Shown here piece by piece: positions 36,881 to 64,000 of a DNA stretch of 64,000 nt. Position 1 is the stretch's first letter, and the number at the start of each line of letters is the position of its first letter. This stretch comes from Candidatus Omnitrophota bacterium (GTDB taxonomy: Bacteria > Omnitrophota > Gorgyraeia > Zapsychrales > Fredricksoniimonadaceae). The translations under genes were made by a program, and so were the position numbers. Below the pieces are notes generated by a model that was given only the letters and a program-made list of their open reading frames with translations, had not been told where the DNA came from and searched no databases. The DNA lies in contig CAJARJ010000013.1 in the NCBI GenBank assembly GCA_903944345.1, positions 58,672 to 122,671 on the forward strand, written 5' to 3'.

Positions 36881-36949
36881 ATACCACTCCTTTGTGTGGT
36901 ATATGCTACACCCCGATAAAGAACGAGTCAAGAAAGAATTCGAACCAAA

Positions 36950-46656: not shown

Positions 46657-48681
46657 ATGATCCAGCGCTTATATCACTCAAGATGGTTTAAAAAAACAAC
46701 TTGCGCCGTCCTGGCGACATTTGTCACGCTCATCCCGGCACAATCAGGCTACACACAGGTGGTTGCCCCCATGCCGGCACCGGGCCAGATGACGCGAGTA
46801 ACCGGAAAATTTGAGCCTGCCCGCATGGCAGGAATGCGCATAGATCCCCGGAACCCGTTCAATTTCTATTTTCTCATAAACAAAGGCGAACAGTCTTTAA
46901 CACTTGAGGCCCAAAAGGCTGAATACAACAAACTCATAAAATATTTTCTGGCTTCCCTGACCATTCCGAACCGGGATATGTGGGTTAACCTGTCTCCGTC
47001 GGAGTCCGACCGCATAATCCCGGATAACTTTGCCCGGACTGAAACAGGGCACGCCCTTCTGGCACAAGATTATCTTTTAAAACAATTCACGTCTTCATTA
47101 ATGCACCCGGAAGACCCTGTCGGCAAAGAATTCTGGACAAAGATCTACGCGAAAGCGTTCGAAAAATTCGGCACAACCGAGATTCCGATAGATACCTTCA
47201 ACAAAGTGTGGATCACCGCCGACAGGGCGGATATCTATCAAAAAGACGATACCGCTCTTCTGGTCGACAGCCATCTGAAAGTGATGCTGCAGCAGGATTT
47301 CATGGCCATCAGACAGAACAAGGAACAATACGCAGTCGCGGCCGACACCCTGGCGCAAGAGAGCGACGGGGCACGCCAAATGACATCGGATCTTGTGCGG
47401 GAAGTGATCATTCCGGTCATGGAAAACGAGATAAACACCGGCAGCAACTTTGCCCAGGTTCGCCAGATATACAATTCCATGATCCTGGCAACCTGGTACA
47501 AGAAAACTCTCCGGAAAAGCCTGCTCGGACAGATCTACGCCGACAAAAGCAAAGCAGCCGGGATTGAAACAAGTGACCCGCAAGCCAGAGAGAAAATTTA
47601 TCAACAGTATCTCGAAGCGTTCCAACTGGGCGCCTTCAATTATATAAAAAATGACACAAATCCCTCAACACAGGAAACATTACCCAGAAAATATTTTTCG
47701 GGAGGAGTTGCCCTCTTGCCAGACGCAGCCATGATCAAGGTCGTCGATGAACGTTCAGCCAGAAATCAATTTCTTGGTCTGAGGAATACTGTAGAAGTTG
47801 TTACCACCCTGTTCACCAAAACCAGCCGACTCTTCCCTCTTTTACTGCTCCCCGCCAACAGCTTGACTTACGCATCAACAACTCTCCCGTCTACCGAACC
47901 GCCTGACACAGATCTCATCGCGACAACCCTCGGAATGATCCATTCACAGACCGCAGAATTCATGAATCTGCTGAACAACGAAGCAACCGGCTGGGCGCTG
48001 CTGGGAATATTCCTCGTTTCCGTGCCCCTGATCCTGTACCATGCCCACAAACTCAGGATCAAGATCGCACTTGCTGTCCAGATTATCGATACCAGGACAG
48101 ACTTGTTGTCCAGGGAAGACCTTTTAGCAATACTAAAAGAGGTATACCGGTCAGATGCAACCACAAGCTCGGATCTGGACATTCAGTTTATTACCAATAG
48201 CATGCAAAAGCAGAATATCGATATTCAAACCGGTCTCGCGGCATTAATATCGTTCTTCAGCCTGGATCAGGAACACCGCTTGCTTGAGGTCAATGCAACT
48301 GCCTACATAGCCAACATAAAAACAAACGATCTCACATCGAAAAGAAACAGATTGAATCCTCTCCGTCACGCGGCTGAGATTTCCGACATTGAAAGAAGAA
48401 TACACCAGAGCGAACAATCTTATATGCAACTGGAAAAAGCCATAGACGCATTAACACCCCCCGATTCTGCCGCCCTGCAGGCGCCTACCGGCGGTATTGA
48501 TCTGGATGAAAAATATCTGACCATGAATATCCGTGTGGACGGAAAAGGAATGCCTTTGCCGGTGTCCATGCAGGATCCGGCGATGCTTGATATCGACGGG
48601 CTCTCACCGTTCATTCGTGAGATTGAACCTGTGACCCCCTTGAATATGCCGGTATTCCTGGAACTGACCCAAAGCCCGTAA
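46657..48681 (+). CDS. Family paralog P2 (674 aa): signal peptide, conserved N-domain, hydrophobic segment, C-terminal GGIDL module
   Basis: ..GMRIDPRNPFNFYF..WVNLSPSESDRIIPDNF..LLAQDYLLKQ..FGTTEIPIDTFNKVWITADRADIY..LKVMLQQD..REVIIPVMENEIN..NSMILATWYK..PRKYFSGG..; transmembrane-like GWALLGIFLVSVPLILY; ends ..APTGGIDLDEKY..PLPV.. Confidence 0.8.
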   Translation: MIQRLYHSRWFKKTTCAVLATFVTLIPAQSGYTQVVAPMPAPGQMTRVTGKFEPARMAGMRIDPRNPFNFYFLINKGEQSLTLEAQKAEYNKLIKYFLASLTIPNRDMWVNLSPSESDRIIPDNFARTETGHALLAQDYLLKQFTSSLMHPEDPVGKEFWTKIYAKAFEKFGTTEIPIDTFNKVWITADRADIYQKDDTALLVDSHLKVMLQQDFMAIRQNKEQYAVAADTLAQESDGARQMTSDLVREVIIPVMENEINTGSNFAQVRQIYNSMILATWYKKTLRKSLLGQIYADKSKAAGIETSDPQAREKIYQQYLEAFQLGAFNYIKNDTNPSTQETLPRKYFSGGVALLPDAAMIKVVDERSARNQFLGLRNTVEVVTTLFTKTSRLFPLLLLPANSLTYASTTLPSTEPPDTDLIATTLGMIHSQTAEFMNLLNNEATGWALLGIFLVSVPLILYHAHKLRIKIALAVQIIDTRTDLLSREDLLAILKEVYRSDATTSSDLDIQFITNSMQKQNIDIQTGLAALISFFSLDQEHRLLEVNATAYIANIKTNDLTSKRNRLNPLRHAAEISDIERRIHQSEQSYMQLEKAIDALTPPDSAALQAPTGGIDLDEKYLTMNIRVDGKGMPLPVSMQDPAMLDIDGLSPFIREIEPVTPLNMPVFLELTQSP

Positions 48682-48787: not shown

Positions 48788-50977
48788 ATGTTCAAACGTT
48801 TGTGTGCAATCCTACTAATCGTGTCCGTTCTTGTCACTTCCACAATTCCCTCGGCGGCTTTGGCCCAGATGTCGTCTTTACCCGTCCCCGGATCCATGCT
48901 GGGGAAAACCCCGGATTTCTCTCCTCTGATAATGCAGGGAGTTCGCGTCCATCCCGATAATGCTCTCCTGTTTGATTTTATTATCGATTCCGGAGACTCA
49001 GGACTCGCCACTGACAGTGCCGCTTTCAGACAGGAAGCCGGAAAACTCGTCAATTATTTTCTGGCGTCGCTCACTATAAAAGAAGAAGACCTTTGGGTTA
49101 ACCTTTCCCCGTTTGAACACAACCGCATCCTCTCCCCCGATCTGGAAAAAACAGAACTGGGCAGTGACATGCTGGCACAAGACTACATCCTGAAACAATT
49201 AAGCGCTTCACTGATCTATCCGGAAGAAAATCTGGGAGAAACGTTCTGGAACCGGGTCTACGCCCGTGCCCGGGAAGAATTCGGCACCACAAACATACCG
49301 GTCGACACCTTCCACAAAATATGGATCAAGGCAGACAAGGTCCGGGTTATCGAACACGAGGGGGCCGCCTATGTGGCCGGAGCACACCTGAAAGTCATGC
49401 TGGAACAGGACTATCTGGCCATAAGCCGCACACCTTCCGACGGCGAAGGCAGCGATATTGCCCGTGATATCCTGCGCGAAGTCATTGTTCCTGAAATAGA
49501 AAAAGAAGTCAACCGGGGCACCCATTTTGCCCCGCTCAGGCAGATGTTCAATTCCATGATCCTTGCCACATGGTACAAGCTGGCACTCAAAGACGCCCTG
49601 CTCAACCGGATTTACAGCGACCGCGGAAAAACCGGCGGCGTACTGGCAGACGATCCGGCAGAAGCAGAGAAAATCTATGAACGCTATCTGGAAGCTTACA
49701 AAAAAGGCGTTTTCAACTATATCAAGGAAACCCCCGGAGCGAATGAGGAACCTACTTTGCCAAGAAAATATTTCTCGGGTGGAGTGGACGGGAACCTGGC
49801 TAAAATACTGGAACGTGTGGATGCCGCTGCTGCTCCGACAGAACTGACAGCTCCTGGCAACAGTCGCCGCTCCGCCGTTACGGTGCGGCTGGAAACAGTT
49901 GCCCAACCGGTCGAAGACTCCGTTCCTGCAAAAGAAACCCAACAACGCATAGAAAACTTCCTGGCGGGACACTCCGAAACGGCAACAGATGCGTCCATGC
50001 TGTCTGATTTAAACGAACTGATCAAAACTATCCGCGAACTTCCGGTCGACATGTTCGAAAAACGTTTCGAGGAACTCTCCCTGTTGACCAGTAAAAAACA
50101 GTTGCGCGTCCTGCGTGATTTGTTCGACAAAATAAGAGGCCTGGACGAGCCTGGCGTTGAGCATCTGATCTCCCGGATAAAAGCCCTGGGTCTCAGGCAG
50201 GCCGAAATGGATGAACTGGTTGAAAATCTCGAAAAAACTGTCTGGATGCGAAAAGAAGCTTCCGGCCCGGCTGTCTCCACCGATCGTTACATCACCCTTC
50301 TGAAAAAAAAGATTGCCCTGAGCCTGTCATTTATAGTTCTGGGATTTATATCCGGGAGCTTTGCCGTTATCGACATGCTAGACAACAGAACAGAATGGAC
50401 TTCTCTGCTGGCCATTTTTGCCTCGTACATTTTTTTTATACTGGCCAGGCATCTGGACAAATATATTAAAAGCATGAACGAGCAACCGGCCAAACGTACG
50501 CTGGGCCAGAACGATCTTGTGAATCTGGCGGAACAGTTTCTTGTCCTTTATCAGAATGGCGAAGCGATACCGGGTGCAACCGAAGAGCTCGCGCGGGACG
50601 CCGTCAATTACGAAATCTATTTCTGGCTGCTGCACGAAAGATACATTGCGCCCGATGATCTGCCTGCTGCTGTTCGTGGTGTCAGCCAACAGCTGTCGCT
50701 AACACCATTAAAAGGCCCTGGCAGTTACTGGAGCATTACCGTCAATCACCCTGACCCTCTGGACAGTAACACCGACCAGTCCCAGGCCGCCAAGGGTGGT
50801 ATCGACCTGAATGCCAAAACCATGAGCCTGGATATTTCCAGAACAGCGGCAAGCGCCGCGATCAGAATGGATCAATCTGCCTTCGACGGGTTTGAGGACA
50901 ACCTGTTTTCGGGACTGCAGGGGATTATTATCAGGATCGTTCCGGTTGAAAACCCGGCCGTATTTCTGGGCGTCTGA
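48788..50977 (+). CDS. Family paralog P3 (729 aa): signal peptide, conserved N-domain, two hydrophobic segments, C-terminal GGIDLN module
   Basis: ..GVRVHPDNALLFDF..WVNLSPFEHNRILSPDL..LAQDYILKQ..FGTTNIPVDTFHKIWIKADK..LKVMLEQD..REVIVPEIEKEVN..NSMILATWYK..PRKYFSGG..; ends ..AAKGGIDLNAKT..IVPVENPAVFLGV. Confidence 0.8.
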   Translation: MFKRLCAILLIVSVLVTSTIPSAALAQMSSLPVPGSMLGKTPDFSPLIMQGVRVHPDNALLFDFIIDSGDSGLATDSAAFRQEAGKLVNYFLASLTIKEEDLWVNLSPFEHNRILSPDLEKTELGSDMLAQDYILKQLSASLIYPEENLGETFWNRVYARAREEFGTTNIPVDTFHKIWIKADKVRVIEHEGAAYVAGAHLKVMLEQDYLAISRTPSDGEGSDIARDILREVIVPEIEKEVNRGTHFAPLRQMFNSMILATWYKLALKDALLNRIYSDRGKTGGVLADDPAEAEKIYERYLEAYKKGVFNYIKETPGANEEPTLPRKYFSGGVDGNLAKILERVDAAAAPTELTAPGNSRRSAVTVRLETVAQPVEDSVPAKETQQRIENFLAGHSETATDASMLSDLNELIKTIRELPVDMFEKRFEELSLLTSKKQLRVLRDLFDKIRGLDEPGVEHLISRIKALGLRQAEMDELVENLEKTVWMRKEASGPAVSTDRYITLLKKKIALSLSFIVLGFISGSFAVIDMLDNRTEWTSLLAIFASYIFFILARHLDKYIKSMNEQPAKRTLGQNDLVNLAEQFLVLYQNGEAIPGATEELARDAVNYEIYFWLLHERYIAPDDLPAAVRGVSQQLSLTPLKGPGSYWSITVNHPDPLDSNTDQSQAAKGGIDLNAKTMSLDISRTAASAAIRMDQSAFDGFEDNLFSGLQGIIIRIVPVENPAVFLGV

Positions 50978-52832: not shown

Positions 52833-52936
52833 ATAAAGCCCTGCTGATTAAGAAGATTGACTGCCAAAATGATTCTTAAGTATACCAGAAACATTTTAAT
52901 TCATTTTTAATTAGTGTTTTTAATTCGTGTTAATTC

Positions 52937-52954
52937 GTGACACACACAATTGTT
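52937..52954. repeat. IR-element left arm GTGACACACACAATTGTT, preceded by two TAATTCGTG sub-repeats
   Basis: Perfect reverse complement of 54093..54110; the same family as the other eight copies below. Confidence 0.7.
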
Positions 52955-53043
52955 TTGTCACATTTTATACATTAATAGCACATTTAGTATCATATTTTGT
53001 CTAAGATATGATGACAAACAAAAAATGATCTTATATCAAAAAA

Positions 53044-54006
53044 TCAGTGCCTTCCTAATTTAATGAACCCGGAGATAATTTTTGCCACCGTATCTGTTCC
53101 CTGCGGAGCACGCAAGTCCCCGGCCAGGACATGATTTTCGGAATGATCAAAACTCCGGACGGCAACAAGCTTTTTATCATCCCGCGGAATACGCTTAAAC
53201 GCTCTGCTAGCCGGTCCGGGATCAACCAAACGATCCTCAGGCGAATAAATAACCAGCAGAGGGCGATGTATCTTTTCCCAGGCGGCTTGGCGCGCAAAAG
53301 CCGCCAAAAGCCCCGGCGTAACCAACGCCCCGGAGGGATACTGTGTCGTCCAATAGCGATTGATAAGAGGATTGTCGGAAACTCGGGAATACTGCGGCCC
53401 AACCACCAGCCTGGCGATCTGAGCGCCCCACGGCCCGGATAAAAGACCCGATAAAGGATGCCTGAACCCCAGCGCCGGAGAAAGAAGAACATACGCCAGC
53501 ACATCGTCGTTACCCTCAAGCGTTGCCAGCCAGGCTGCCAGCGCCCCGCCCGAGGAGTTACCAATAACAATTACTTTTTCGCCAATTCTACGGCCGACAG
53601 CCAGAGCCTCAAGTGTGTCCTGCAAGAAATCTTCCACCCGGGCAGACGCCAGGCTCTCCCCACCAAGACCATGTCCCCTCAGACGTGTGTAAAACACGTT
53701 GGCTCCCCATTCTTCAGCCAGACGCTCGCATAAAGGAAAAGTATCCTGACGTGAAGACGAAAAACCGTGCAGATAAACTATAGAAACCGACGTTTTCTCC
53801 CCGGGTGCAGCGGCCCAGGAAACAGATTTTTCAGTTCCCGGAATCACAGCCGGATACGAAGCCTCACGATGCAATAAATAAGTCACAATATCTTGCTCAG
53901 GCAAAAAATCAATTGCAACCGATCTAAAATGCACCCGCGCCCGAGGCCCGGCCAAAAATAAAACAACCAACGCACAAAGAAAGAAAACTATTTTAGAGAC
54001 ACCCAT
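53044..54006 (-). CDS. Secreted alpha/beta-hydrolase (esterase/lipase-like)
   Basis: Signal peptide; HGFSSS; nucleophile elbow GNSSGG (GxSxG); C-terminal Asp/His region; bracketed by the perfect 18-bp inverted repeat. Confidence 0.75.
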   Translation of the reverse strand: MGVSKIVFFLCALVVLFLAGPRARVHFRSVAIDFLPEQDIVTYLLHREASYPAVIPGTEKSVSWAAAPGEKTSVSIVYLHGFSSSRQDTFPLCERLAEEWGANVFYTRLRGHGLGGESLASARVEDFLQDTLEALAVGRRIGEKVIVIGNSSGGALAAWLATLEGNDDVLAYVLLSPALGFRHPLSGLLSGPWGAQIARLVVGPQYSRVSDNPLINRYWTTQYPSGALVTPGLLAAFARQAAWEKIHRPLLVIYSPEDRLVDPGPASRAFKRIPRDDKKLVAVRSFDHSENHVLAGDLRAPQGTDTVAKIISGFIKLGRH

Positions 54007-54092
54007 AATTGTTTTTTTATATCGCTGGCCACATTAGTAATTTAATTCACTAAACAACTAGATATGTTGAATAATGTTAATAAATGCTTGAA

Positions 54093-54110
54093 AACAATTG
54101 TGTGTGTCAC
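54093..54110. repeat. IR-element right arm AACAATTGTGTGTGTCAC
   Basis: Perfect inverted partner of 52937..52954, 87 bp upstream of the hydrolase ATG. Confidence 0.7.
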
Positions 54111-54113
54111 CGA

Positions 54114-55142
54114 TTAAACTATCCGGGCGCGAAGGTCGTGGAAAACTTCGTCCAGAGAACCGGCATGAGCTGAGCGGATTTCCTGGAGCTGACGCGCAAC
54201 CTCGTTACGCAGACGCGGGGAACGCAGGTCATCCAGCTTCTGGCACAAGCCAAGCCGCCGAGCGAGCGTAAAATAAATACGCTCTTCTTCGGGAAGTTCA
54301 AGGTAGCGATCCATCAATCCCAAAAGTGCAGGCTTGTCCTGAGGAAACTGTCCCCTGGCTTCCAGCAAAAGATCAACAGCATGATGGTTGGCGTAATGAC
54401 TGGTAATGCCTTCCAGTGCCGCAATCAGCATTTTTTGTTCTTCAATAATATTCTTTTCTGTCTGCAGGGTAAATTCCCCGGCCTGCATCTGGCGAAACAA
54501 ACCTGAACCAGGTTTAACACCGATAGTAAGAACCCGGATAAAATCCGGATTGATTTCATTCAACACCCTGGCTGTTTCACGAGCGTGCTCCTGCCACAAT
54601 TCCTGCCCGCCGAGCCCCAGGATAATAAATTCCGAAACCGACATTCCCGCCTCTTTGGCCCTGCGTCCGGAAACAGCAATATCAGTGGCCGTAGCCCCTT
54701 TGTTGACCTTCTTGAGTACCGTATCCGACCCCGACTCCATTCCGCAGTAGAGCTTGTTGAGTCCGGCACGGCACATATCCTGCATTTCTTCCGGTGACTT
54801 GCGGATCATGGTCTGGGCTCGACCGTAACTGCTGATGCGTTTCAGCTGCGGGAACCTCTGCCGCAAAAAGCCGAGCAATTCCAGAAGATCGGCGGTTTTC
54901 ATCAAAAAACTGTCGCCATCCTGAAGAAAACATGTTTCAAAAGCGTGCCCCCGGTAATATTCTGCCGCGGCATCAATATCGCCTTTTATTTCGTCGAGCG
55001 TCCGCAGGGAAAACTTCATGTCCCTGTAGTTGACGCAAAACTCGCACTTGTTCCAAGGGCAGCCGCGCGTAGTACGCACAAGCAGACTTTCAGCCTCGTC
55101 TACCGGACGAATAGGCCCCAGTTCAAACGGCGGATTATTCAT
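54114..55142 (-). CDS. Radical SAM domain protein (unusual Cx4Cx2C cluster motif), coupled to paralog P4
   Basis: ..TTRGCPWNKCEFC.. near the N-terminus; 342 aa; the ATG lies 2 nt after the P4 stop codon (TAA-AT-ATG). Confidence 0.7.
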   Translation of the reverse strand: MNNPPFELGPIRPVDEAESLLVRTTRGCPWNKCEFCVNYRDMKFSLRTLDEIKGDIDAAAEYYRGHAFETCFLQDGDSFLMKTADLLELLGFLRQRFPQLKRISSYGRAQTMIRKSPEEMQDMCRAGLNKLYCGMESGSDTVLKKVNKGATATDIAVSGRRAKEAGMSVSEFIILGLGGQELWQEHARETARVLNEINPDFIRVLTIGVKPGSGLFRQMQAGEFTLQTEKNIIEEQKMLIAALEGITSHYANHHAVDLLLEARGQFPQDKPALLGLMDRYLELPEEERIYFTLARRLGLCQKLDDLRSPRLRNEVARQLQEIRSAHAGSLDEVFHDLRARIV

Positions 55143-55144
55143 AT

Positions 55145-58100
55145 TTAAAACCTCACAAAATCCGTTAGCGCGGCCTGCGCGGTAACACCAACAATAACCG
55201 GAACAATCCCCGTTGCATGCTGACGCAGCTGCTGCATGGTTTCTTCACTCAGCTCAAAGACTGAAGCCGATGCCAGATCATACCCCGATCCAGCCGCTCT
55301 TTCAATCAGAAGCCTGATATTATCCGGATTAAGATCGATACCACCCGGAGTTAATGCTGACTGGGCGTGATCGGCTCCTACAACAACCTGTCGCGCCCGG
55401 GCAAGCGCCTCATTATTGTTCCTGTACCCTCTGAGATACTCCTTGAACTCAGGCGGCATACTGTTGCTGTTGGCTGACTGCTTGAAATCGGCGATCGGCC
55501 CGGCGGCAACAACAACCAGACGACGGCGGCCATAGGCGCGCTCAAGAACAGCCCGTAAAGCCGGATGATCAGAAATTTCATCGGAATGCCCTGAAAAAAA
55601 ACTGTCCAGACGCGCACCAAAGGCTTCCGCAGTCCCGTCATCCTGAAAAACCCACAAATCTTTCTCCCTGAGCTTGACCATAAGCCCGTCAGTCACAAGC
55701 CGGTTCAATATTCCGGTCCCTTCATAGCCCAACTCGTTAAGGGTGGCCGAGGACACCATCCCCGAAAGCACAACATAAACACTTATCGACTGCCCCTTGC
55801 TCTGAAGGCGTTCAATGTGCGGCAAGCCATTCTGGTTGGAATCAATCTTGCCTTCCAGAAAATCATTGATCAACCCCTCAATCACGCGCCGCTCGCGCGG
55901 TTGCTGCAAATAGTCACCATTCACCCATCCTCCGTCGACAACCGCGACATCATATCCTTTGATCCGCAAAGGCTGCTCCTGTTTTAAATACCGCTCGGGC
56001 GTAACACCCCAGAGCTTCCAGTAACCCTGCAGAACACTTTGCTCAATCTGCATCTGCCTGCTCATATGCGGTAGAAGTTTGTCGTACCCTTCCCGTGCAA
56101 GCCGACCATTCTTGACTATGGTTCGTGTTTCGGAGAGAGCATTAAAATAAGCTTCGCCATTGCCCTCGCTATCCAGAAAACGCCGCACAGACTCCGGCGG
56201 AGCTTGCGCCGAACGGGCCAACGTACTGACCACATCAGCATAATTCCCCTCGTACTGCAATCCGGAAGCAAGAATACCGTCAAGTCCCTCGGAGATGAGA
56301 ACCCCTTCCTCAATGGCAGCAGACTCCTCGTCCTGCCAGGGAATTTCGACGAAAGCCAGAAAACGCGAACCCATGCTACCCTCGGGCCGCCAACGATCAA
56401 TATCCTCAAAGGTCAGACCCTGCGCTTTGGAGGCAAGAAATACCCGTTCTGGCGTTACATTGACTCCACTCCGGGCAAGACTGATAACCGCGTCCAGCAG
56501 ACGTGTATCCTCGGGCTCCAGCTGCAGAATCTCTGCCTCGCCCAGAATAAAAGCCAGCTTGTCTGCAGGCGGTTCCCCGTTAGAAAACCCCGAAGATTCC
56601 CGCAAAAACCTGGTGACCCAGGTATTCATCCACAATCCAAAGCGCTCTCTGAGTGCCGCTTGCAATATTTTACGATCAACCTGTGCATCGGTAATATCTG
56701 TAAAAGCCAAATCATTCTTGTACTGACGCACCACCTTGCGCAAAACATCTTTAAGGCTGGTACCTGGACGGGCATGCTTTATCATGACCTCGTAATGACG
56801 AATCATGCGCTCAATCAACGGGCGCTGCAAAGGAGACGGGGCTACCGGGCGAGAAACCTCTATGGTTTTCTTGATCTTCTCGGTCCTGGCATAGGACTGC
56901 AGAAACAAATCCACATTATAGTACCCGGCTTCAAACAAAAGATCCGCAACCCGTCTTTCCACATCCACAAATTGCTTCTTATGCCGCGGCTGGGGAATAT
57001 CCTGCTCCCGGATATTGGCCAAAACCTGTAACAAGTCTTGCCACCGTGAACTTCTGATAATATCCGAGAGTTCCTCCTCAAGCTGTCCTCTTCTGAAAGG
57101 ATTCGGAATCCAGGAATCTTCTCCCAGGTCTTCGATAAATATAAGATCTTTCAACGGGAGCGGTTCAGCAACAAATGCGGCGAACAAACGCAGAAACAAC
57201 AGGCCCCTGCGGGCTTCCTGAATAATCTGCTGATTTTTTGATCTCCCGCCTTCGGCCAGAATCTCGAGCAATTTATTACCGACTGCAGCCGTCTTATCCT
57301 GCGCGCCAAACGCCTCCTGGAACTTTAAGAGCAGTCCGGAAGAAAGATCCTCTTTCCTGAAAACTTTCAGCATTTTCTCCAACCCCAGCCACTCTTCCAT
57401 ATTGACTTTAGAAAATAAATGCCCCATTCTCATAACAAGTGCCTGACGGAATTCCACAACATCCAGATCCTTGAGAAATTCGACTACCAGCCCGGCGAAT
57501 TCAAAAGACTTTCCCTTTACAATCGCGTTTTCAATCTTTTCAAGCTGCGGACGCAACTTCTTGATCTGCCCCTTGTGCTTGGGAAGAAATATGGCCGAGT
57601 CCCGTGTAAAGTCTGCAACATTATAATGAAGCCCCCCTTGCATCTTGATCCCCTGCGCGGCGTCGGTCTGAACCTGCAGATCAGAAGAGACCCTGTAATA
57701 ATCCCGCGTGTCCGCAGGAAGGTCCAAATCCATCGCGGCGTCGCCATTGAGAATCACTCCGCCGGACATATATTTGCGGGGGATAGTGTCGCCATTCCAG
57801 GGGTCAGTTTCTTCCCGAATCAGGTTAAAAACACCCTGCCTGAAACTGTCCATATAAGCTGTCCAGACCGTTTCGGCAGAAACCCTCCCGAAGCTGTCCA
57901 TCCCCTGCGTTTTACGGCTGTCAGAGTACACCCGCGCCACAACAGAATCATACAGCTTTTTCTTGTACCACGTGGCCAATACCAGACAGCGATAAATCTC
58001 TCTCACCCTGGCAAAACGCGGGCTTTCATTAACCTCGCGCTCAAGAGCGGGTATAACCACTTCGCGCATGGCACGTAAAGCCGCGGTACGCGCCGGATTG

Positions 58101-58900
58101 TTATATCCCGGACCAATTTCAGCCGAAAACTGCGGATAAGCCGCCGAAGCCCTGTAATCGTCCTCAAGCAAAACCTTCAGACGAGTTTCCGTCACAACTG
58201 CAGCAGCACCCGGCGCGGCGACGTCCCGGGAAAAGTTTTCAAAAATACGCGCGCTGTCAGAAGTTATCCAGACCTTGTTGAAGGTATCAACCGGCAAATC
58301 GGTTGTGCCAAACTTTTCGTGCAAATCAGCATAGACACCGGCCCAAAAAGCTTTCCCCTGGCTGTCGTCAGGATGAACCAACTCGGCGGCCACGCGCTTG
58401 AGCAAATAATCCATAACCAGCAAGTCCTGCCCCATGCCTGTTCGCGCGAGGTCCGGGGTCGTCACCCGGTCTTTTTCATAGGGGGAAAGATTGATCCACA
58501 AATCCTGGGGAGGAATAACCAGCGAAGAAAGAAAGTACCTGATCTGACGAAGGGAGTCCTGGCTGTTATCAATCTCGGAACTCCCCCAGGCAGCATTGCG
58601 CTCGAAAATGAAATCCATCCGTAAAGGATTGCGGGGGTCAACCCTGACACCCTTCATGATCACGCCGGAGGGGGCTGTAATATCTTCAAGCAGAGGATCG
58701 CCGGGCAACGCAAGTGGAAGAACAGATTGTGCGCTAACAGGAACTACGGAGCCCAAAAAAAGGATGGCGCACAAAAATAACCGGAAGAAAATTCCGAAAG
58801 GTGAAAGCATCTGGCCAGAACAATTTAGAAGTGACATGGTTTTTGACAAATCCGGGTTAAAACTACAGGAAAGTATAATATATTTTAAGCTTTCCTGCAC
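55145..58900 (-). CDS. Family paralog P4 (about 1,230-1,251 aa): signal peptide, conserved N-domain, long unique central region, C-terminal GGIDLN module
   Basis: ..GVRVDPRNPLRMDF..WINLSPYEKDRVTTPDL..LLVMDYLLKR..FGTTDLPVDTFNKVWITSD..LKVLLEDD..REVVIPALEREVN..LVLATWYK..PRKYMSGG..; ends ..LTPGGIDLNPDN..IVPVIVGV... The track ORF starts at a GTG at 58900; ATGs at 58837 and 58810 are alternatives (the signal peptide follows 58810). Confidence 0.8.
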   Translation of the reverse strand: MQESLKYIILSCSFNPDLSKTMSLLNCSGQMLSPFGIFFRLFLCAILFLGSVVPVSAQSVLPLALPGDPLLEDITAPSGVIMKGVRVDPRNPLRMDFIFERNAAWGSSEIDNSQDSLRQIRYFLSSLVIPPQDLWINLSPYEKDRVTTPDLARTGMGQDLLVMDYLLKRVAAELVHPDDSQGKAFWAGVYADLHEKFGTTDLPVDTFNKVWITSDSARIFENFSRDVAAPGAAAVVTETRLKVLLEDDYRASAAYPQFSAEIGPGYNNPARTAALRAMREVVIPALEREVNESPRFARVREIYRCLVLATWYKKKLYDSVVARVYSDSRKTQGMDSFGRVSAETVWTAYMDSFRQGVFNLIREETDPWNGDTIPRKYMSGGVILNGDAAMDLDLPADTRDYYRVSSDLQVQTDAAQGIKMQGGLHYNVADFTRDSAIFLPKHKGQIKKLRPQLEKIENAIVKGKSFEFAGLVVEFLKDLDVVEFRQALVMRMGHLFSKVNMEEWLGLEKMLKVFRKEDLSSGLLLKFQEAFGAQDKTAAVGNKLLEILAEGGRSKNQQIIQEARRGLLFLRLFAAFVAEPLPLKDLIFIEDLGEDSWIPNPFRRGQLEEELSDIIRSSRWQDLLQVLANIREQDIPQPRHKKQFVDVERRVADLLFEAGYYNVDLFLQSYARTEKIKKTIEVSRPVAPSPLQRPLIERMIRHYEVMIKHARPGTSLKDVLRKVVRQYKNDLAFTDITDAQVDRKILQAALRERFGLWMNTWVTRFLRESSGFSNGEPPADKLAFILGEAEILQLEPEDTRLLDAVISLARSGVNVTPERVFLASKAQGLTFEDIDRWRPEGSMGSRFLAFVEIPWQDEESAAIEEGVLISEGLDGILASGLQYEGNYADVVSTLARSAQAPPESVRRFLDSEGNGEAYFNALSETRTIVKNGRLAREGYDKLLPHMSRQMQIEQSVLQGYWKLWGVTPERYLKQEQPLRIKGYDVAVVDGGWVNGDYLQQPRERRVIEGLINDFLEGKIDSNQNGLPHIERLQSKGQSISVYVVLSGMVSSATLNELGYEGTGILNRLVTDGLMVKLREKDLWVFQDDGTAEAFGARLDSFFSGHSDEISDHPALRAVLERAYGRRRLVVVAAGPIADFKQSANSNSMPPEFKEYLRGYRNNNEALARARQVVVGADHAQSALTPGGIDLNPDNIRLLIERAAGSGYDLASASVFELSEETMQQLRQHATGIVPVIVGVTAQAALTDFVRF

Positions 58901-58919
58901 ATTATCCGGATCAGATCGA

Positions 58920-59549
58920 CTAACTTGCGGTAGCCGTGATCGTCAAAACACCTTCATAGACTCCGGCAACATCACTCAGGGTAAAGGGGACGGCACCCGC
59001 CGGGTCGGTAGCATCTCCACTCGCCAGCTGCAAATGAACAATCAGCGCTGTGCTACTACCCATCTCTTCAGGCGTAACCTGTTCGTTTATAACATCTTTT
59101 AACAGTTTTCTGGGGCCATGATCGGGCAGATCAACTGTAATACTCTGATTACCTCTATAAACAAATCGCTTAAACCAGGCCACAGTGTGCCACCCTAACC
59201 CCTTGCCGGTTTGTCCGTTAGGATTTCTACTTTCCGCATAAGTGAGCGTGGCATTTATACTCCCTACCCAACCGATAGGAGTGATGGAAATAACGAACGT
59301 GTTGGGTGACTTATAAATATTCTGAGCAGAATCAAACTGCAGGGCGCCAAAATCAAGGGAACCACTCTCGGGTAAAACGTCCACATTCTCGCCGCGGGCA
59401 GCGGAAACCATGATCCCTGCTTGAGAAGGAACATAAGCTCCCAGATTAAAAGACTGCTCATCCGCCTGCAAAATTCCGCAAGTCAAAAGAACAAAAAAGA
59501 AAATTAACCGGGCAATTAATTGGTGACACACAGAATTGTTTTCTAACAT
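58920..59549 (-). CDS. Hypothetical small secreted protein (209 aa), first gene of the P4 operon
   Basis: ATG at 59549; signal peptide LIARLIFFFVLLTCGILQA; the first 9 codons are encoded by the IR element (MLENNSVCHQ is the reverse complement of ..TGGTGACACACAGAATTGTTTTCTAACAT). Confidence 0.5.
   Translation of the reverse strand: MLENNSVCHQLIARLIFFFVLLTCGILQADEQSFNLGAYVPSQAGIMVSAARGENVDVLPESGSLDFGALQFDSAQNIYKSPNTFVISITPIGWVGSINATLTYAESRNPNGQTGKGLGWHTVAWFKRFVYRGNQSITVDLPDHGPRKLLKDVINEQVTPEEMGSSTALIVHLQLASGDATDPAGAVPFTLSDVAGVYEGVLTITATAS
59523..59540. repeat. IR-element left arm GTGACACACAGAATTGTT (preceded by AATTAATTGGTGA)
   Basis: Left end of a MITE-like unit of about 116 bp, 59523..59638. 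Confidence 0.7.
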
Positions 59550-59620
59550 TCTTTACACAAGTTATACAACATACAGTTTTCAATTATTACATTGTAATAA
59601 AACGCAATTAAATGTCAAAG

Positions 59621-59638
59621 AATAATTCTGTGTGTCAC
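59621..59638. repeat. IR-element right arm AATAATTCTGTGTGTCAC
   Basis: Inverted partner, one mismatch; the internal sequence begins TTCTAACATTCTTTACA and ends ATGTCAAAG, like the 62189..62305 copy. Confidence 0.7.
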
Positions 59639-59695
59639 TAATTATTGCTAATTATTCTTTTTAATATAACAATAGAATGTGATAAAATGTTAAAT

Positions 59696-59713
59696 AATAA
59701 TTCTGTGTGTCAC
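59696..59713. repeat. Second right-arm copy AATAATTCTGTGTGTCAC(CAATTAA), 85 bp upstream of the P5 ATG
   Basis: Solo arm, or a tandem arrangement with 59621. Confidence 0.65.
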
Positions 59714-59797
59714 CAATTAACACAACTGCCCGCTGGGGCAAGGAGAATAAAGATTCGCTTTACAACTCAAGACTGATTAACAAAAGGAGAAACAGGC

Positions 59798-62167
59798 ATG
59801 CGCTATGTATTATCCAGTCAATCCGATCAGTTGAGGACAAGAAAGCCCGGCACACACATCATCAACGCGGTCATGACCGCCATATTCCTCTTTCAAAGCT
59901 GTGTTGCACCCAACGTATGGGCGCAGTCCCTTCAGATGCCATCATCAGTCCCCTCTACAAAACCAGCGTATATCCCCGCGAGCCTGCAAGGTCTGGTTCT
60001 TGATTACAAAGAACCCTTTAAACTCAATTTTCTCGTTAGCCCCGGGCAATCCCCTCTTTCTCCTGTCGAAAAGAAAGAAGAATACGCCCGCCTCGTAAGA
60101 TATTTCTTGGCCGCCCTTGCCATCCCCGACAACGACCAGTGGGTCAACCTTTCACCTTTTGAAAAAGAACGCATTATTTCCGGGAACTTCGGCCGCACGG
60201 AAATGGGCCGCGACCTGCTGCGGCAGGACTATCAACTCAAACAATTATCCTCCAGCCTCACTCATCCCGACTCTGCAACAGGGAAAATATTCTGGGAACA
60301 TCTGTATGCCGAATTTTTGCGCACATTCGGAACAACCCAAATCCCCGCCGAGGCCTTGAACAAGGTGTGGATCATGCCGGACAAGGCCGTAATCCATGAA
60401 AACAGCCGAACCCGTTCGGTACACATTCTGGAACAACGATTAAAAATTGTCAGCGATGTGGATCATGCCGCGCTTCGCGGAGGACAACCGGACAGATCTC
60501 CTCTTGAGGATATTTACCAGGATGCCCTGCGCAAAACCATCCTGCCACTAATCGAAAAAGAAATTAATGAAAGCCGCGACTTCGCCATGCTCCGGCAGAT
60601 TTACAGCAGCATGTTACTGGCCGCATGGTTCAAGCGGGCCCTCAAGGATTCGGTCCTCACCAATCTTTACGGCGACAAATCGAAAACCACAGGCATCGAT
60701 ACAAATCCGCTTGTCAACCAGGCCATCTACCGTGATTACGTTGACATGTTCCGCAAGGGAGTCTTTGATTTCATCCGGGACGATCTGGACACAGCAACAG
60801 GAGACATCCTCCCCCGCAGGTACTTCTCGGGCGGGGCTGTTTCTGTCGGATCAGCTTTCGAGGATACAGTGACGGTCCTGACCGATCAGTCGCAAAGAAT
60901 TGCAGATCCCAACGAGGAACTGGTTACAGCAAGCCTGGTCTCTCCCCAACAAATCCCCCGACGCCTGGCCCCAACAGATATCCCCGTCGTTCTAATACTG
61001 CTGTCTCTCTGGCAGGGACATACCAATGCCCCCAATAAACAGGTTGTAATTCCTTTCTCGCCGATATACGCACAGTTCTTGCCTGAACAAAACGCTATCC
61101 CGGGGACACGTCTTCTGGACGACTCCCCGGCAGCAGGTCTTGAAATTGTTGATCGTCACGATTTGATCTCCTGGCTCGTTGGCCTGAAGAATTTCAAACG
61201 GGCCAAGAAACTGGCCCAGATAGCCTTGCGCCAAAGACATGAACTCTTGGCCCTGGCTCTTTCCTTACCTCTCTCTGAAACATTGTCAGACGACCAACAA
61301 ACCCGTGTCCTGACGTTTTCAGTCAATCACCGGGATTACACCGTCGAGATCATCAGTCACAACAAACCTTTCACATATAATGGTACTGATTACGATCCGC
61401 TGCCCGGAAGCATGATAAAAATCACAAAAGACAGAGGGCATGAAATTCTCCTGGAAATCCTGAAGGGCGAAACAACACCCGCGCAATGGAAGACAGACGT
61501 TGTTCCTTTCCTGCTGGCCCGGGTTTTTCCAGGAATTGAAGTTTCCGGATTCGATCAACCCGCCGAAACATTCGAATTGGCAGCGTCCAAGGACGACATG
61601 ACCAGCGACGACAATACTCCTTCCTTAAACGTAACTGCAAATACACTGGAACAAATTTTTTCTTTACCAGCGTCGAAAACAGAACTCGTTTCAAGAAAAG
61701 ATGCCCTGGAACTGGCTTTTATGGTGGAAACACCGGAGGGCAAAGCTCTCCTGACGGCCCTGCCTCTTTACGCCCCTGAAGATAAAGACCGCACATTTGT
61801 CGTCGGTTTACAGGTCACTGTCTCCACACTCACAGAAACCGGGCTTCACGAAATACTTTTTGCCAATACACACGATCTTTCCCTTATCAGCCGTCTGAAC
61901 AGAGAAAATCCGTCGTGGCGTAATTTTGCTGTTTTCGCAAGCGCGCTGGTTGCCGGCAATCCCGACACAAACAGCAGTCCTGGCAGCCTCGCAGCCGCCG
62001 CTCCTGGTGGTGTTGACTTCAGCGAAGCAGCACTGGATTTGTTGATCAAACGAGATGGCAGCGGGATTCCTCTGCCTGTGGGTCAGCAAAACCTGACGAA
62101 TATAAGAATCAACGGACTGGTGCCGGTCATTATGAACATCCGTCCGGCAGTCGAAATTAATTGGTAA
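59798..62167 (+). CDS. Family paralog P5 (789 aa): conserved N-domain, unique central region, C-terminal GGVDF module
   Basis: ..WVNLSPFEKERIISGNF..LLRQDYQLKQ..FGTTQIPAEALNKVWIMPDKAVI..KTILPLIEKEIN..SSMLLAAWFK..PRRYFSGG..; ends ..AAPGGVDFSEAALDLLIKRDGSGIPLPV..VPVIMNIRPAVEINW; ATG with a GGAG ribosome-binding site. Confidence 0.8.
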   Translation: MRYVLSSQSDQLRTRKPGTHIINAVMTAIFLFQSCVAPNVWAQSLQMPSSVPSTKPAYIPASLQGLVLDYKEPFKLNFLVSPGQSPLSPVEKKEEYARLVRYFLAALAIPDNDQWVNLSPFEKERIISGNFGRTEMGRDLLRQDYQLKQLSSSLTHPDSATGKIFWEHLYAEFLRTFGTTQIPAEALNKVWIMPDKAVIHENSRTRSVHILEQRLKIVSDVDHAALRGGQPDRSPLEDIYQDALRKTILPLIEKEINESRDFAMLRQIYSSMLLAAWFKRALKDSVLTNLYGDKSKTTGIDTNPLVNQAIYRDYVDMFRKGVFDFIRDDLDTATGDILPRRYFSGGAVSVGSAFEDTVTVLTDQSQRIADPNEELVTASLVSPQQIPRRLAPTDIPVVLILLSLWQGHTNAPNKQVVIPFSPIYAQFLPEQNAIPGTRLLDDSPAAGLEIVDRHDLISWLVGLKNFKRAKKLAQIALRQRHELLALALSLPLSETLSDDQQTRVLTFSVNHRDYTVEIISHNKPFTYNGTDYDPLPGSMIKITKDRGHEILLEILKGETTPAQWKTDVVPFLLARVFPGIEVSGFDQPAETFELAASKDDMTSDDNTPSLNVTANTLEQIFSLPASKTELVSRKDALELAFMVETPEGKALLTALPLYAPEDKDRTFVVGLQVTVSTLTETGLHEILFANTHDLSLISRLNRENPSWRNFAVFASALVAGNPDTNSSPGSLAAAAPGGVDFSEAALDLLIKRDGSGIPLPVGQQNLTNIRINGLVPVIMNIRPAVEINW

Positions 62168-62192
62168 TTAATTGGTGATAATTAATTGGTGA
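62155..62192. repeat. Three tandem AATTAATTGGT(A/G) sub-repeats overlapping the P5 stop codon and leading into the IR arm
   Basis: gaAATTAATTGGTAATTAATTGGTGATAATTAATTGGTGAcac; the last P5 codons (EINW*) are read from the first repeat. Confidence 0.55.
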
Positions 62193-62206
62193 CACACAGA
62201 ATTGTT
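62189..62206. repeat. IR-element left arm GTGACACACAGAATTGTT
   Basis: Left end of a MITE-like unit of about 117 bp, 62189..62305. Confidence 0.7.
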
Positions 62207-62287
62207 TCTTAACATTCTTTACATCTATTTTACGCTTTTTCAGGATCTAGTTTTGACTACGCAAAAGAATGTCAATAGATGTCAGAA

Positions 62288-62305
62288 AACAATTCTGTGT
62301 GTCAC
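62288..62305. repeat. IR-element right arm AACAATTCTGTGTGTCAC (followed by a CGAATTATCT x2 direct repeat)
   Basis: Perfect reverse complement of the left arm; internal subterminal sequences match the 59523..59638 copy. Confidence 0.7.
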
Positions 62306-62319
62306 GAATTATCTACGAA

Positions 62320-62868
62320 TTATCTGATTTCAAAAATATCCACACACGCGTTAATCTCGCTTGCAGAGAATGGTGGCCGCGTATTGCTTCTGATCTCATT
62401 AAGAACAATCTTTCTTTGATCAATACTCAGAGGAGCCGAATTCAGGAAATCCCATGAAGATTCCGTCTTGCCATACAAATACACGGCACAAATAAGACCT
62501 TTGTCAGCATTCGCAAGGTTAAGGACTCTCAGTTTTCCGATATCCGAGAGAATTTCCCCCATCCTGACCCCATCCCCATTTTTGACTCCCAGACGAATAA
62601 CTTTCAATTCAAACGCAGCCAGAATATTCCTACTGGTATTAGAATCTTTAATAATAATATCTGCCACAACATTCGCAAGAGAATCAGACTCCACAAGAAC
62701 TGTCTTCGACGGAAATCTCTCTTGTAACCACCCCGCCAATCCAAGCTGGATATAGTTCTCGAAACCGACAGAACCCTGTTTCATACAAAGGATAACACCG
62801 GAGGTTTTCATCAATTCGACCACTTTTTTTTCTATCTGCTTTTTCAACTCTTCCGTTAGAAACTGCAT
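62320..62868 (-). CDS. Hypothetical protein with a possible PD-(D/E)xK nuclease-like motif
   Basis: 183 aa from the ATG at 62868 (MQFLTEEL..); ..VESDSLANVVADIIIKD..AAFELKV.. (D ... ExK spacing). The track ORF starts at a GTG inside the IR arm at 62913. Local GC looks lower than its neighbours. Confidence 0.4.
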   Translation of the reverse strand: MQFLTEELKKQIEKKVVELMKTSGVILCMKQGSVGFENYIQLGLAGWLQERFPSKTVLVESDSLANVVADIIIKDSNTSRNILAAFELKVIRLGVKNGDGVRMGEILSDIGKLRVLNLANADKGLICAVYLYGKTESSWDFLNSAPLSIDQRKIVLNEIRSNTRPPFSASEINACVDIFEIR

Positions 62869-62869
62869 A

Positions 62870-62878
62870 CCCCCCCCC
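62870..62878. promoter_or_regulatory. C9 homopolymer (G9 on the coding strand) 1 nt upstream of the ATG of the 62320..62868 gene, within its ribosome-binding-site window
   Basis: Plus strand gcatACCCCCCCCCtc; coding strand GAGGGGGGGGGT-ATG; a candidate slipped-strand phase-variation tract. Confidence 0.5.
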
Positions 62879-62906
62879 TCTTTAAAAATTAATTGGCGAT
62901 TAATTG

Positions 62907-62924
62907 GTGACACACAGAATTATT
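62907..62924. repeat. IR-element left arm GTGACACACAGAATTATT (preceded by AATTAATTGGCG and ATTAATTGGTGA sub-repeats)
   Basis: Left end of a unit of about 252 bp, 62907..63158. Confidence 0.7.
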
Positions 62925-63140
62925 AGCCAGCGATAAGCCCCTGCATAAGCCATCAAGGCATCACTAAAGGCCAGCTTGCTATTGAAGCGACTGAGCACAA
63001 CTGCGTTGAATACTTTAACATCATTCTCAGGCAAAAAAAAAGAACAAAAAAAATATCCTCAATCACATCATAAAAACGCAAAGGTTTCCAACGCGGCATT
63101 GTCAGGAAGCGGACAAGGGCAATGACAAAATATGTCAAGA

Positions 63141-63158
63141 AACAATTCTGTGTGTCAC
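63141..63158. repeat. IR-element right arm AACAATTCTGTGTGTCAC overlapping the umuC stop codon
   Basis: The umuC TGA (63155-63157, minus strand) is the TGA inside GTGACAC of this arm; preceded by ATGTCAAGA as in other copies. Confidence 0.7.
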
Positions 63159-64000
63159 CGATTATACTCTCCGGCAAAAAATACCGCTCCTTTGGCAACT
63201 TTTGTGTTCAGCTGATCCACCACCGCCATGAGCTTTTCCTGACGCTCCCGCGCCTGCGTATCCACAAAAAGTTCCAGGGGAGTTTCTGTCCGGGTTGAAA
63301 AGTCGCCAAGGACTACCCCCGCCCGTTTATACCCCCTCCCGGGTTGATATATCTCCCCGAGAATTTGACGAACTGCACTGGTCAAGCCCGGGGTATAATC
63401 CGTCCGTGGATCAAACCGGACACTCCCTGAATTGGCGTAATAATCAGGCTTGAACGGACTGGTGCCTGCAAACACCTGCAAAAAACCGGTGATCTGCCCC
63501 TGCGCCCGCATCTTTTGAGCCGCATGAGACGTGAACCCGCACACTATCGACTCAATCTCTTCCAAAGAATGAATATCCCGAGGGAATGTCCGTGAAATGC
63601 CGATAGTCTGCCTGGGGGCAGGAATATCCTCAAGACCGATACAAGAAATTCCGCGAAGTTCGAAAACCGTCCGCAGCGTCACCACACTCATGTTTTTCCT
63701 GATCCATCGATCATCGGCATTGCGCAGGTCCAAGATCGTTCGAATTCCCCGCGCTGTCAAGACCCTGGCCTTCTGCCCGCCTATCCCCCATACCTCGCTT
63801 ACAGGAAGCTCTTGCATAACCCGTTGCGAATTTTGTTCCTCCAAAAGAGAACAAACCCCCTGATATTCCGGATGCGTCTTTGCTGTGTGATTGGCCAGCT
63901 TGGATAACGTCTTGGTGGATGCTATTCCGACGGAAACAGGAAGACCTGTGTCCTTGAGGACCGTCCGGCGAATATCCCGCCCATACTCAACAAAAGCCTT
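63155..64000 (-). CDS. umuC: Y-family DNA polymerase (UmuC/DinB-like), C-terminal about two thirds; 5' end beyond the window
   Basis: I extended the frame upstream of the track ORF by hand: ..KAFVEYGRDIRRTVLKDTGLPVSVGIASTKTLSKLANHTAK..EVWGIGGQKARVLTARGIRTILDL... It remains open to position 64000. Confidence 0.8.
   Translation of the reverse strand, partial: KAFVEYGRDIRRTVLKDTGLPVSVGIASTKTLSKLANHTAKTHPEYQGVCSLLEEQNSQRVMQELPVSEVWGIGGQKARVLTARGIRTILDLRNADDRWIRKNMSVVTLRTVFELRGISCIGLEDIPAPRQTIGISRTFPRDIHSLEEIESIVCGFTSHAAQKMRAQGQITGFLQVFAGTSPFKPDYYANSGSVRFDPRTDYTPGLTSAVRQILGEIYQPGRGYKRAGVVLGDFSTRTETPLELFVDTQARERQEKLMAVVDQLNTKVAKGAVFFAGEYNR

Follow-up and report, generated by a model that had tools for sequence, protein, structure and literature searches.

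A homopolymeric G tract at the Shine-Dalgarno position of a gene for a small protein of predicted PD-(D/E)xK fold, in a repeat-punctuated island of a Candidatus Omnitrophota bacterium

Nucleases and restriction systems are typical phase-variable cargo, and homopolymer tracts inside open reading frames (ORFs) are, next to tracts upstream of genes, the other common contingency case. The present analysis concerns a run of nine G residues (G9) that precedes the start codon of a gene for a protein of 182 amino acids (aa) in a stretch of 64,000 nucleotides (nt) from a Candidatus Omnitrophota bacterium (assembly GCA_903944345.1, contig CAJARJ010000013.1, positions 58,672 to 122,671), which is referred to below as the window. 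In Treponema pallidum poly-G tracts upstream of genes modulate expression; these are located in or just upstream of promoters, e.g. at tpr and tp0126 (PMC7864442). In Mycobacterium tuberculosis a poly-G tract at the 5' end of the espR 5' untranslated region changes espR translation (PMC11898584). The G9 tract is like these contingency loci in that it is a 9-nt G homopolymer immediately 5' of a coding sequence. Unlike them, it occupies the Shine-Dalgarno (SD) position and not a promoter spacer or an ORF, it has a single length in 11 assemblies, and no such tract is kept in the orthologue. The reading that we consider probable is that the gene encodes a protein of the PD-(D/E)xK fold translated from the ATG behind the tract, that G9 acts as an SD sequence particular to this clone, and that a change in its length would have a graded effect.

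Two start codons are available to the gene. The ORF is open from a GTG at 62913 to 62320 (197 aa, reading ...KEGGGMQF...), and this is the version recorded in the JGI gene calls. A preliminary description of this DNA, which had used the ATG, pointed out that a start at this GTG would place the tract inside the coding frame, where it would encode GGG and where a change by one G would shift the frame. However, the 15 extra codons consist of the arm of the upstream palindromic repeat described below and two copies of CCAATTAAT, and they are not conserved: in the orthologue an in-frame TAA is present 18 nt 5' of the equivalent ATG. The first 15 residues are the same in the 182-aa protein and the orthologue, with the N-terminus MQFLTEELKKQIEKK kept, the equivalent M is the start in all members of the family alignment, and an SD-like sequence lies immediately 5' of the ATG. 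The 197-aa call is therefore an over-extension, and a gene that starts at the GTG is extremely improbable. The gene is genuine, its ATG version is the correct one, and the public annotation should be corrected from 197 to 182 aa. In the preliminary description the tract in a GTG-started frame thus has to be given up, whereas the ATG start, the nuclease fold, the lower GC content and the position between inverted repeats can be retained.

Among 5.8 billion proteins only two close clusters were found, i.e. the identical protein, which is present in many contigs, and the orthologue, which has 181 aa and is 80% identical. Comparison of the two genes gave a ratio of nonsynonymous to synonymous substitutions (dN/dS) of 0.20 (dS 0.54, dN 0.11), which indicates that the gene is under purifying selection. 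Its GC content, which had looked low by eye, is 41.5% (43% at third codon positions) compared with 50.8% for the window and 47-53% for the neighbouring genes. Nucleotide similarity to the locus of the orthologue begins at TAAAGAG, ~16 nt 5' of the ATG. This indicates that the conserved unit has only ~16 nt of 5' leader.

As a single sequence the 182-aa protein gave no match in Pfam, NCBIfam, PADLOC, PHROGs or PDB sequences, and a profile search against the PDB sequences returned chance matches to 14-3-3 and Mediator only. An exhaustive HMMER search of 1.84 billion representative proteins revealed ~19 remote homologues of 175-208 aa with 22-41% identity. In the family alignment F36, E37, Q41, D70, K89, D109, L113 and Y130 are invariant, and N38, E60, G94, I110, K112 and W139 nearly so. 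AlphaFold2 produced from the 19-sequence alignment a model with a predicted local distance difference test score (pLDDT) of 89 and a predicted template modelling score of 0.87; with an alignment of two sequences the pLDDT was 42, and the remote homologues found by HMMER were needed for a usable model. The modelled core (helix 37-51, strands 56-62, 67-74 and 82-93, helix 103-113 and strand 122-131) has the alpha-beta-beta-beta-alpha-beta order with a mixed sheet, as in the PD-(D/E)xK fold. The D...ExK pattern, on which a PD-(D/E)xK fold had been proposed from the sequence, falls on this predicted core with the catalytic signature in place: D70 (in ADIII) at the start of the second core strand and E87-L-K89 (in FELKV; E87-x-K89 spans 62602-62610) on the third. 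D70 and K89 are invariant in the 19 sequences, and so is E37 on the preceding helix.

A Foldseek search with the model gave no match below an E-value of 1e-3, and its named top matches were mostly nucleases of the PD-(D/E)xK fold. In the PDB these were BstEII, EcoRV, HincII, SwaI and Cas4, with chains of tRNA-splicing endonuclease and Rep15 interspersed; in the viral set they were Cas4, UL24, a 'PD-(D/E)XK nuclease', YqaJ and a resolvase, and in that set several matches near the head of the list had no name. Other family members had only sub-threshold Pfam matches, to PDDEXK_4 (0.002), DpnII-MboI, DUF2726 and NERD. Compared with the superfamily (small stand-alone members such as the Hjc-type resolvase 1ob8 and the restriction-endonuclease-like protein 3ijm, and the type II restriction endonucleases SwaI, BstYI, BamHI, HincII and NgoMIV), the 182-aa protein has an extra N-terminal helical pair and a C-terminal beta hairpin, and its family is without a curated profile match and has E, Q or A as the 'E' of ExK. 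By its predicted fold the protein is a member of a new small family of stand-alone proteins of ~180 aa in the restriction-endonuclease-fold superfamily, to which, very large as it is, a small unannotated family is added. E37, D70, E87 and K89 are the likely metal-binding and catalytic residues, and nuclease activity is predicted. Unlike the genes of PD-(D/E)xK restriction enzymes, the gene has no methyltransferase or other conserved partner beside it, and the same was found beside two remote homologues. At a guess, the protein may be a solitary defence-type or methylation-dependent nuclease, or a nuclease of DNA repair or resolution. The two homologues (P0022 and P0018, contigs L101 and L104) are surrounded by orphan genes; each has a gene of the PAD_porph type (agmatine/peptidyl-arginine deiminase) within 1.5-5 kb, and one of them is followed by HATPase_c_4 and MarR-type HTH fragments; no methyltransferase was seen near either.

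On the + strand C9 occupies 62870-62878, with an 'a' at 62869 and CAT at 62866-62868. The gene (minus) strand reads TAAAGAGGGGGGGGGTATG, with one base between G9 and ATG, exactly as first described. At this SD position the repeat is placed where its length could affect expression. No other run of G or C longer than 7 is present in the window, which contains 301 runs of 4, 74 of 5, five of 6, two of 7 and one of 9, and runs of at least 6 are otherwise depleted. On a composition-only model ~0.6-0.9 runs of at least 9 are expected per 64-kb window; therefore, the run by itself is not significant, and what is notable is its location directly before the start codon. A sequencing or assembly artefact was rejected as its source because ENA, Logan and JGI assemblies show the same G9 in 11 contigs, with unique sequence on either side.

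At the place of the tract the orthologue has GAGAGGAGAACTTT and no tract. Its leader, AAAGAGAGGAGAACTTT-ATG, contains a canonical AGGAG at a spacing of 6 nt. The remote homologues have GGAGAGGGCT-ATG and GGAGGGAAT-ATG, which are ordinary G-rich SD sites, again without a tract, and other genes of the island use AAGGAGG, GAGGAGG and AAGGAGA. The presence of G-rich SD sequences at the same place in the orthologue and the homologues suggests that G9 occupies, and presumably serves as, the SD site. By these comparisons G9 is specific to this clone. The energy of the duplex with the canonical anti-SD was -12 to -13 kcal/mol for G5 to G12 and -9.1 for the orthologue, a calculation in which the canonical 16S tail was assumed, the 16S gene being outside the window, so that the tail may not be that of the host. 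The best pairing register of G9 directly abuts the AUG. As pairing is nearly the same from G5 to G12, a change in length would alter mainly the available spacings, and a binary effect is not expected; by this calculation the effect on translation would be graded at most. Sequestration of the tract in an RNA structure was ruled out (leader fold z-score +1.4).

In the mechanism that we propose, the gene, with its conserved leader of ~16 nt, is a single-gene unit of a variable, toxin-antitoxin-rich island. G9 replaces the AGGAG of the orthologue and is predicted to pair strongly with the canonical anti-SD in several registers. A 9-nt homopolymer is intrinsically slippage-prone, and a change in its length would alter which SD-to-AUG spacings are available (~1 to n-4 nt). 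Translation would then be expected to shift in a graded manner rather than to go on or off.

The length of the tract was G9 in 11 of the 11 assembled contigs, which derive from several samples and match the window at 100% identity along as much as 11.7 kb, without any indel and with no more than one single-nucleotide polymorphism (SNP). These assemblies therefore represent one clone, and they probably come from one lake study. Since minority lengths are invisible in consensus sequences, the constant G9 does not refute a switch. In T. pallidum, experimentally variable poly-G tracts were still ~81% G9 in a near-clonal isolate (PMC7864442). A G8 run within a gene of a related organism was constant in three assemblies that differ by 0-16 SNPs per 10.6 kb. 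It is located at 11219-11226 of contig L095, in the last codons of a 228-aa gene (GAATGGGGGGGGACTCGCATTTAA).

A working contingency switch would imply that slipped-strand mispairing changes the tract length at high frequency and, through the SD-to-AUG geometry, switches or modulates translation of the nuclease. In favour of this, nucleases and restriction systems are often phase-variable, the tract is the longest G/C run in the 64 kb and lies right at the translation start, runs of at least 6 are depleted elsewhere, and a consensus of G9 is compatible with minority variants. There are, in addition, the poly-G precedents of T. pallidum (PMC7864442) and M. tuberculosis espR (PMC11898584), but neither of these, nor the tracts in ORFs, sits in the SD itself. 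Phase variation is considered unlikely because conservation of the tract is lacking, the consensus shows one length only and the effect expected through SD pairing is small: the repeat is not retained as a tract in the 80%-identical orthologue or the remote homologues, homopolymer indels are absent from up to 11.7 kb of the 11 contigs, and with anti-SD pairing predicted to be nearly independent of length no binary switch is expected. As a homopolymer at a ribosome-binding site, the tract is an interesting candidate for a switch. Should its length prove variable in read data, this would be an unusual repeat that acts through the SD itself, in a free-living freshwater bacterium and not in a host-adapted pathogen.

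The tract could also be neutral, i.e. a G-rich SD that expanded by chance in an accessory gene of recent acquisition, which is possibly poorly expressed or decaying. The number of runs expected from composition, the occurrence of G9 in this clone only, the foreign-looking GC content of the gene and the position flush against the ATG, which is a sub-optimal spacing, would all agree with this. However, the gene is intact and under purifying selection, runs of at least 6 are clearly avoided elsewhere in the window, and an SD-competent sequence has been kept exactly at the SD position, which makes neutrality distinctly unlikely. The reading that we prefer, a PD-(D/E)xK protein translated from the ATG with G9 as its SD and a graded effect of tract length, has points against it as well. 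No sequence-profile match of the protein to any curated family reaches significance, and other family members may have Q or A at position 87 in place of the E of ExK. A promoter and terminator scan revealed nothing convincing (no sigma-70 promoter or terminator), and the predicted pairing and graded effect depend on the assumed 16S tail. Besides, all assemblies represent one clone, the consensus sequences of which hide minority tract lengths. The coordinates of the gene, the tract and the adjacent features are collected in Table 1.

Table 1. Features at and around the 182-aa gene, in positions of the window. L012 is a contig with the same DNA as the window; L095 belongs to the related organism.
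Feature	Position	Strand	Remarks
182-aa coding sequence	62320..62868	-	ATG 62868-62866, stop TAA 62322-62320
G9 homopolymer	62870..62878	-	positions -2 to -10 from the ATG, Shine-Dalgarno position
Short leader TAAAGAG(G8)T	62869..62884	-	upstream comparison with orthologue; BLAST of L012 against L095
Rejected N-terminal extension (GTG start, 197-aa ORF, JGI records)	62869..62913	-	not conserved
Putative active-site codons	62602..62661	-	D70 62659-62661, E87 62608-62610, K89 62602-62604
E37 codon	62758-62760	-	invariant in family alignment, on helix 37-51
Two direct CCAATTAAT copies	62888..62907	-	between upstream element and leader; reiterate outer end of repeat arm
Upstream palindromic element, 252-nt form	62894..63165	-	inverted repeat, core matches, fold z-score -4.8, nhmmer
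Downstream palindromic element, long form ~130 nt	62176..62315	-	inverted repeat, fold -50.3 kcal/mol, z-score -7.4, nhmmer E-value 1e-43
Y-family (DinB/IMS) DNA polymerase, 3' part	63155..64000	-	Pfam IMS_C, IMS_HHH; upstream neighbour, same strand
Convergent 789-aa gene	59798..62167	+	absent at same place in related organism

The gene is part of an island of ~17 kb that is located between the Bac_transf and Polysacc_synt_2 genes of a polysaccharide locus. In the orientation of the 182-aa gene, the island contains Gp49/HTH, ParE-like/DUF6290, U32 peptidase, HTH_3, Phd/ParE, the DinB-type polymerase (403 aa at full length in L012) and the 182-aa gene, followed by the inverted 789-aa gene, 209-aa, 1221-aa and radical-SAM genes and an alpha/beta hydrolase. 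No called gene in the 10 kb to either side has a Phage_integrase-type, other recombinase or transposase domain. PADLOC and Pfam gave no match for the large orphan genes nearby, and two unknown proteins at the edge of the array gave no matches, that of 338 aa being negative against the PDB sequences as well. The best relatives of the conserved radical-SAM protein, among representative genomes, are 51-58% identical and come from mixed phyla, and by this measure none of these genomes is closely related to the host. The 789-aa protein is paralogous to orphans of 674 and 729 aa at 46.6-51 kb, just outside the island, with 39-41% identity over the N-terminal ~320 aa and a conserved C-terminus, and no Pfam domain was found in any of the three. 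The genes of these paralogues are at 46657-48681 and 48788-50977 of the window, and related sequence is also present on the opposite strand near 6.7 kb (repeats D1/I1, 6744-6951). In contig L014 (6729-10394, which corresponds to ~55145-58810 of the window) the 1221-aa orphan gene was called as two ORFs of 337 and 874 aa, a split for which a single SNP in L014 probably accounts. Outside the island, a 'DNA modification/repair radical SAM' gene (35615-36931; TIGR03916, E 3.5e-160) adjoins a gene for a 648-aa protein (36950-38896), the N-terminal domain of which is of the class-D beta-lactamase/BlaR1-like type (best E 5e-57, a match that does not reach the cut-off of the family).

In the related organism an island is present at the same place with other content. 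It is without the 789-aa unit plus one and a half repeat elements (4873-4971 of L095 against 8163-10762 of L012). Between its radical-SAM and hydrolase genes, the loop of the repeat element contains the 228-aa gene as an insertion (10519-11235 of L095 against 16274-16282 of L012), which is flanked by a ~20-nt direct repeat (ATTTAAATTRC...). Upstream, BrnTA and HipBA units are found where the window's organism has DinB, Phd/ParE and U32.

Nearly every gene or operon of the island is followed by a palindromic repeat of one family, and in six of eight units the stop codon is inside the left arm. The core of this repeat, GTGACACACAGAATT, occurs in nine copies in the window where 0.11 are expected. 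Copies at 62189-62203(+) / 62291-62305(-) and at 62907-62921(+) / 63144-63158(-) form the pairs (62189/62291 and 62907/63144) that enclose the 182-aa gene, in agreement with the earlier observation that it lies between two inverted-repeat elements. The left arm of the upstream element begins within the stop codon of the DinB-type polymerase and its right arm ends ~35 nt before the ATG of the 182-aa gene. The downstream element begins at the stop codon of the latter, the TAA of which is contained in a duplicated AGATAATTCGT. Long (~117-130 nt) and short (~59 nt, with a central deletion) forms occur besides the one of 252 nt, and they are homologous through the loop. The arms are ATAATYGGTGACACACAGAATTGTTTTCTGACAT, with outer ends ATAATYGGTGACAC and GTGTCACCAATTA, and the hairpins have 20-25 perfectly paired outer base pairs (z -6.4 to -7.9). 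The elements are polar and all in one orientation (nhmmer scores of 145 and 54 on the two strands). All nhmmer and core matches are at 52.9-63.2 kb (52929-63165) and none is in the other 52.9 kb of the window; the array continues beyond the end of the window at 64000 (2047-17413 in L012).

Behind the right arm, CCAATTAAT is directly repeated one to five times. It is present six times in the window (0.65 expected), on one strand and always just outside a right arm; contig L009 has five copies at the equivalent place. The reiterations are at 59515-59523, 62156-62189 and 62888-62907 of the window and at 1100-1165 and 1270-1305 of L009. On the left side the 8-11 nt before the arm are also tandemly duplicated; the doubled sequence is AGATAATTCGT after the 182-aa gene and TAATTCGT in the relative. 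Rfam has no family for the palindromes, a chance match to a miRNA hairpin at E 0.23 being the only one, and the repeat pattern gave 0 matches in 185,579 representative genomes, 0 in viral contigs and 3 chance matches in JGI metagenome contigs. The arms that enclose the alpha/beta-hydrolase gene (52937-52951 and 54096-54110, 1.1 kb apart) share a G-to-C variant of the core, GTGACACACACAATT. In the relative the right arm has the same variant and the left arm reads GTGACACACACGATT. A degenerate right arm, AATTATGGGTGTCTC, is found directly before the start of the hydrolase gene. The longest A/T runs of the window, A9 and A8 with GAAC between them (T9 and T8 on the gene strand), are at 63033-63053, ~170 nt upstream of the 182-aa gene, and belong to the loop of the 252-nt element.

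Most of the interest of the finding lies in this repeat-punctuated island rather than in the tract. This context may matter more. Toxin-antitoxin and orphan genes here form a chromosomal array, each unit of which closes with a conserved polar palindrome; the unit content differs between two related organisms, and a canonical attC, a dif site and a nearby recombinase are absent. The island is like MITE/REPIN elements (miniature inverted-repeat transposable elements and REPINs, e.g. the Correia elements of Neisseria) in that its repeats measure 59-250 nt, have terminal inverted repeats of 27-33 nt, a conserved interior and deletion derivatives, and form long hairpins beside gene ends. Unlike these, all copies in the window are within one 10-kb stretch and have the same polarity, the arms show no clear target-site duplication, no transposase was found, and the pattern is absent from the 185,579 representative genomes and from the JGI and viral contig sets.

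With integron cassette arrays and CALIN (clusters of attC sites lacking integrases) the island shares that 12 of its 13 genes, from Gp49 to the hydrolase, have one direction, the 789-aa gene being inverted, that the conserved leader is very short, at least in the 182-aa unit, and that directly behind each unit, often overlapping its stop codon, there is a polar imperfect palindrome (59-130 nt) which is conserved within the array. It is likewise rich in toxin-antitoxin genes, and its content differs at the repeats between related genomes (the 789-aa and 228-aa units and the whole upstream part). In contrast to attC, however, the repeats have neither RYYYAAC nor GTTRRRY at their outer ends, where 20-25 bp are perfectly paired, and GTTAAGA-like and YYYGAC motifs are confined to the inner stem. 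Unlike in integrons, no integrase is present within ~10 kb on either side, units reach 5.4 kb, one unit is inverted, and one insertion in the relative sits in the loop of an element and not at its end.

In Acinetobacter plasmids, dif modules have XerC/XerD pdif sites in inverse orientation at their two ends and often have toxin-antitoxin cargo (PMC13141974). The island resembles these modules in its segments of variable length bounded by inversely oriented copies of one site, mostly in alternating orientation, in a cargo that includes brnTA, higBA-like and parDE-like genes, and in the replacement of modules between relatives. The repeats do not have the layout of the 28-bp dif site (an 11-bp XerC arm, a 6-bp spacer and an 11-bp XerD arm, TTATGTTAAAT-like), as judged by eye against the sites listed in PMC13141974, from which the host's own dif may differ. 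Only ATGTTAA in the inner arm resembles an XerD half-site and an XerC-like arm is absent; the best conserved part, GTGACACACAGAATT, has no counterpart in dif, and the array is on the chromosome of an uncultured bacterium. The canonical attC, dif and classic MITE readings thus each fail a defining feature. That the island (~52.9-64 kb and beyond) is an undescribed site-specific gene-shuffling system, with its own ~117-nt polar palindromic site (arms ATAATYGGTGACACACAGAATTGTTTTCTGACAT and reiterated CCAATTAAT), an unlinked recombinase, the 182-aa gene as a mobile unit and G9 as a slippage-tunable expression knob, is in our estimation very unlikely. If the units are mobile, the array would represent a new cassette-exchange system, a functional counterpart of integron cassette arrays or Xer-dependent dif modules.

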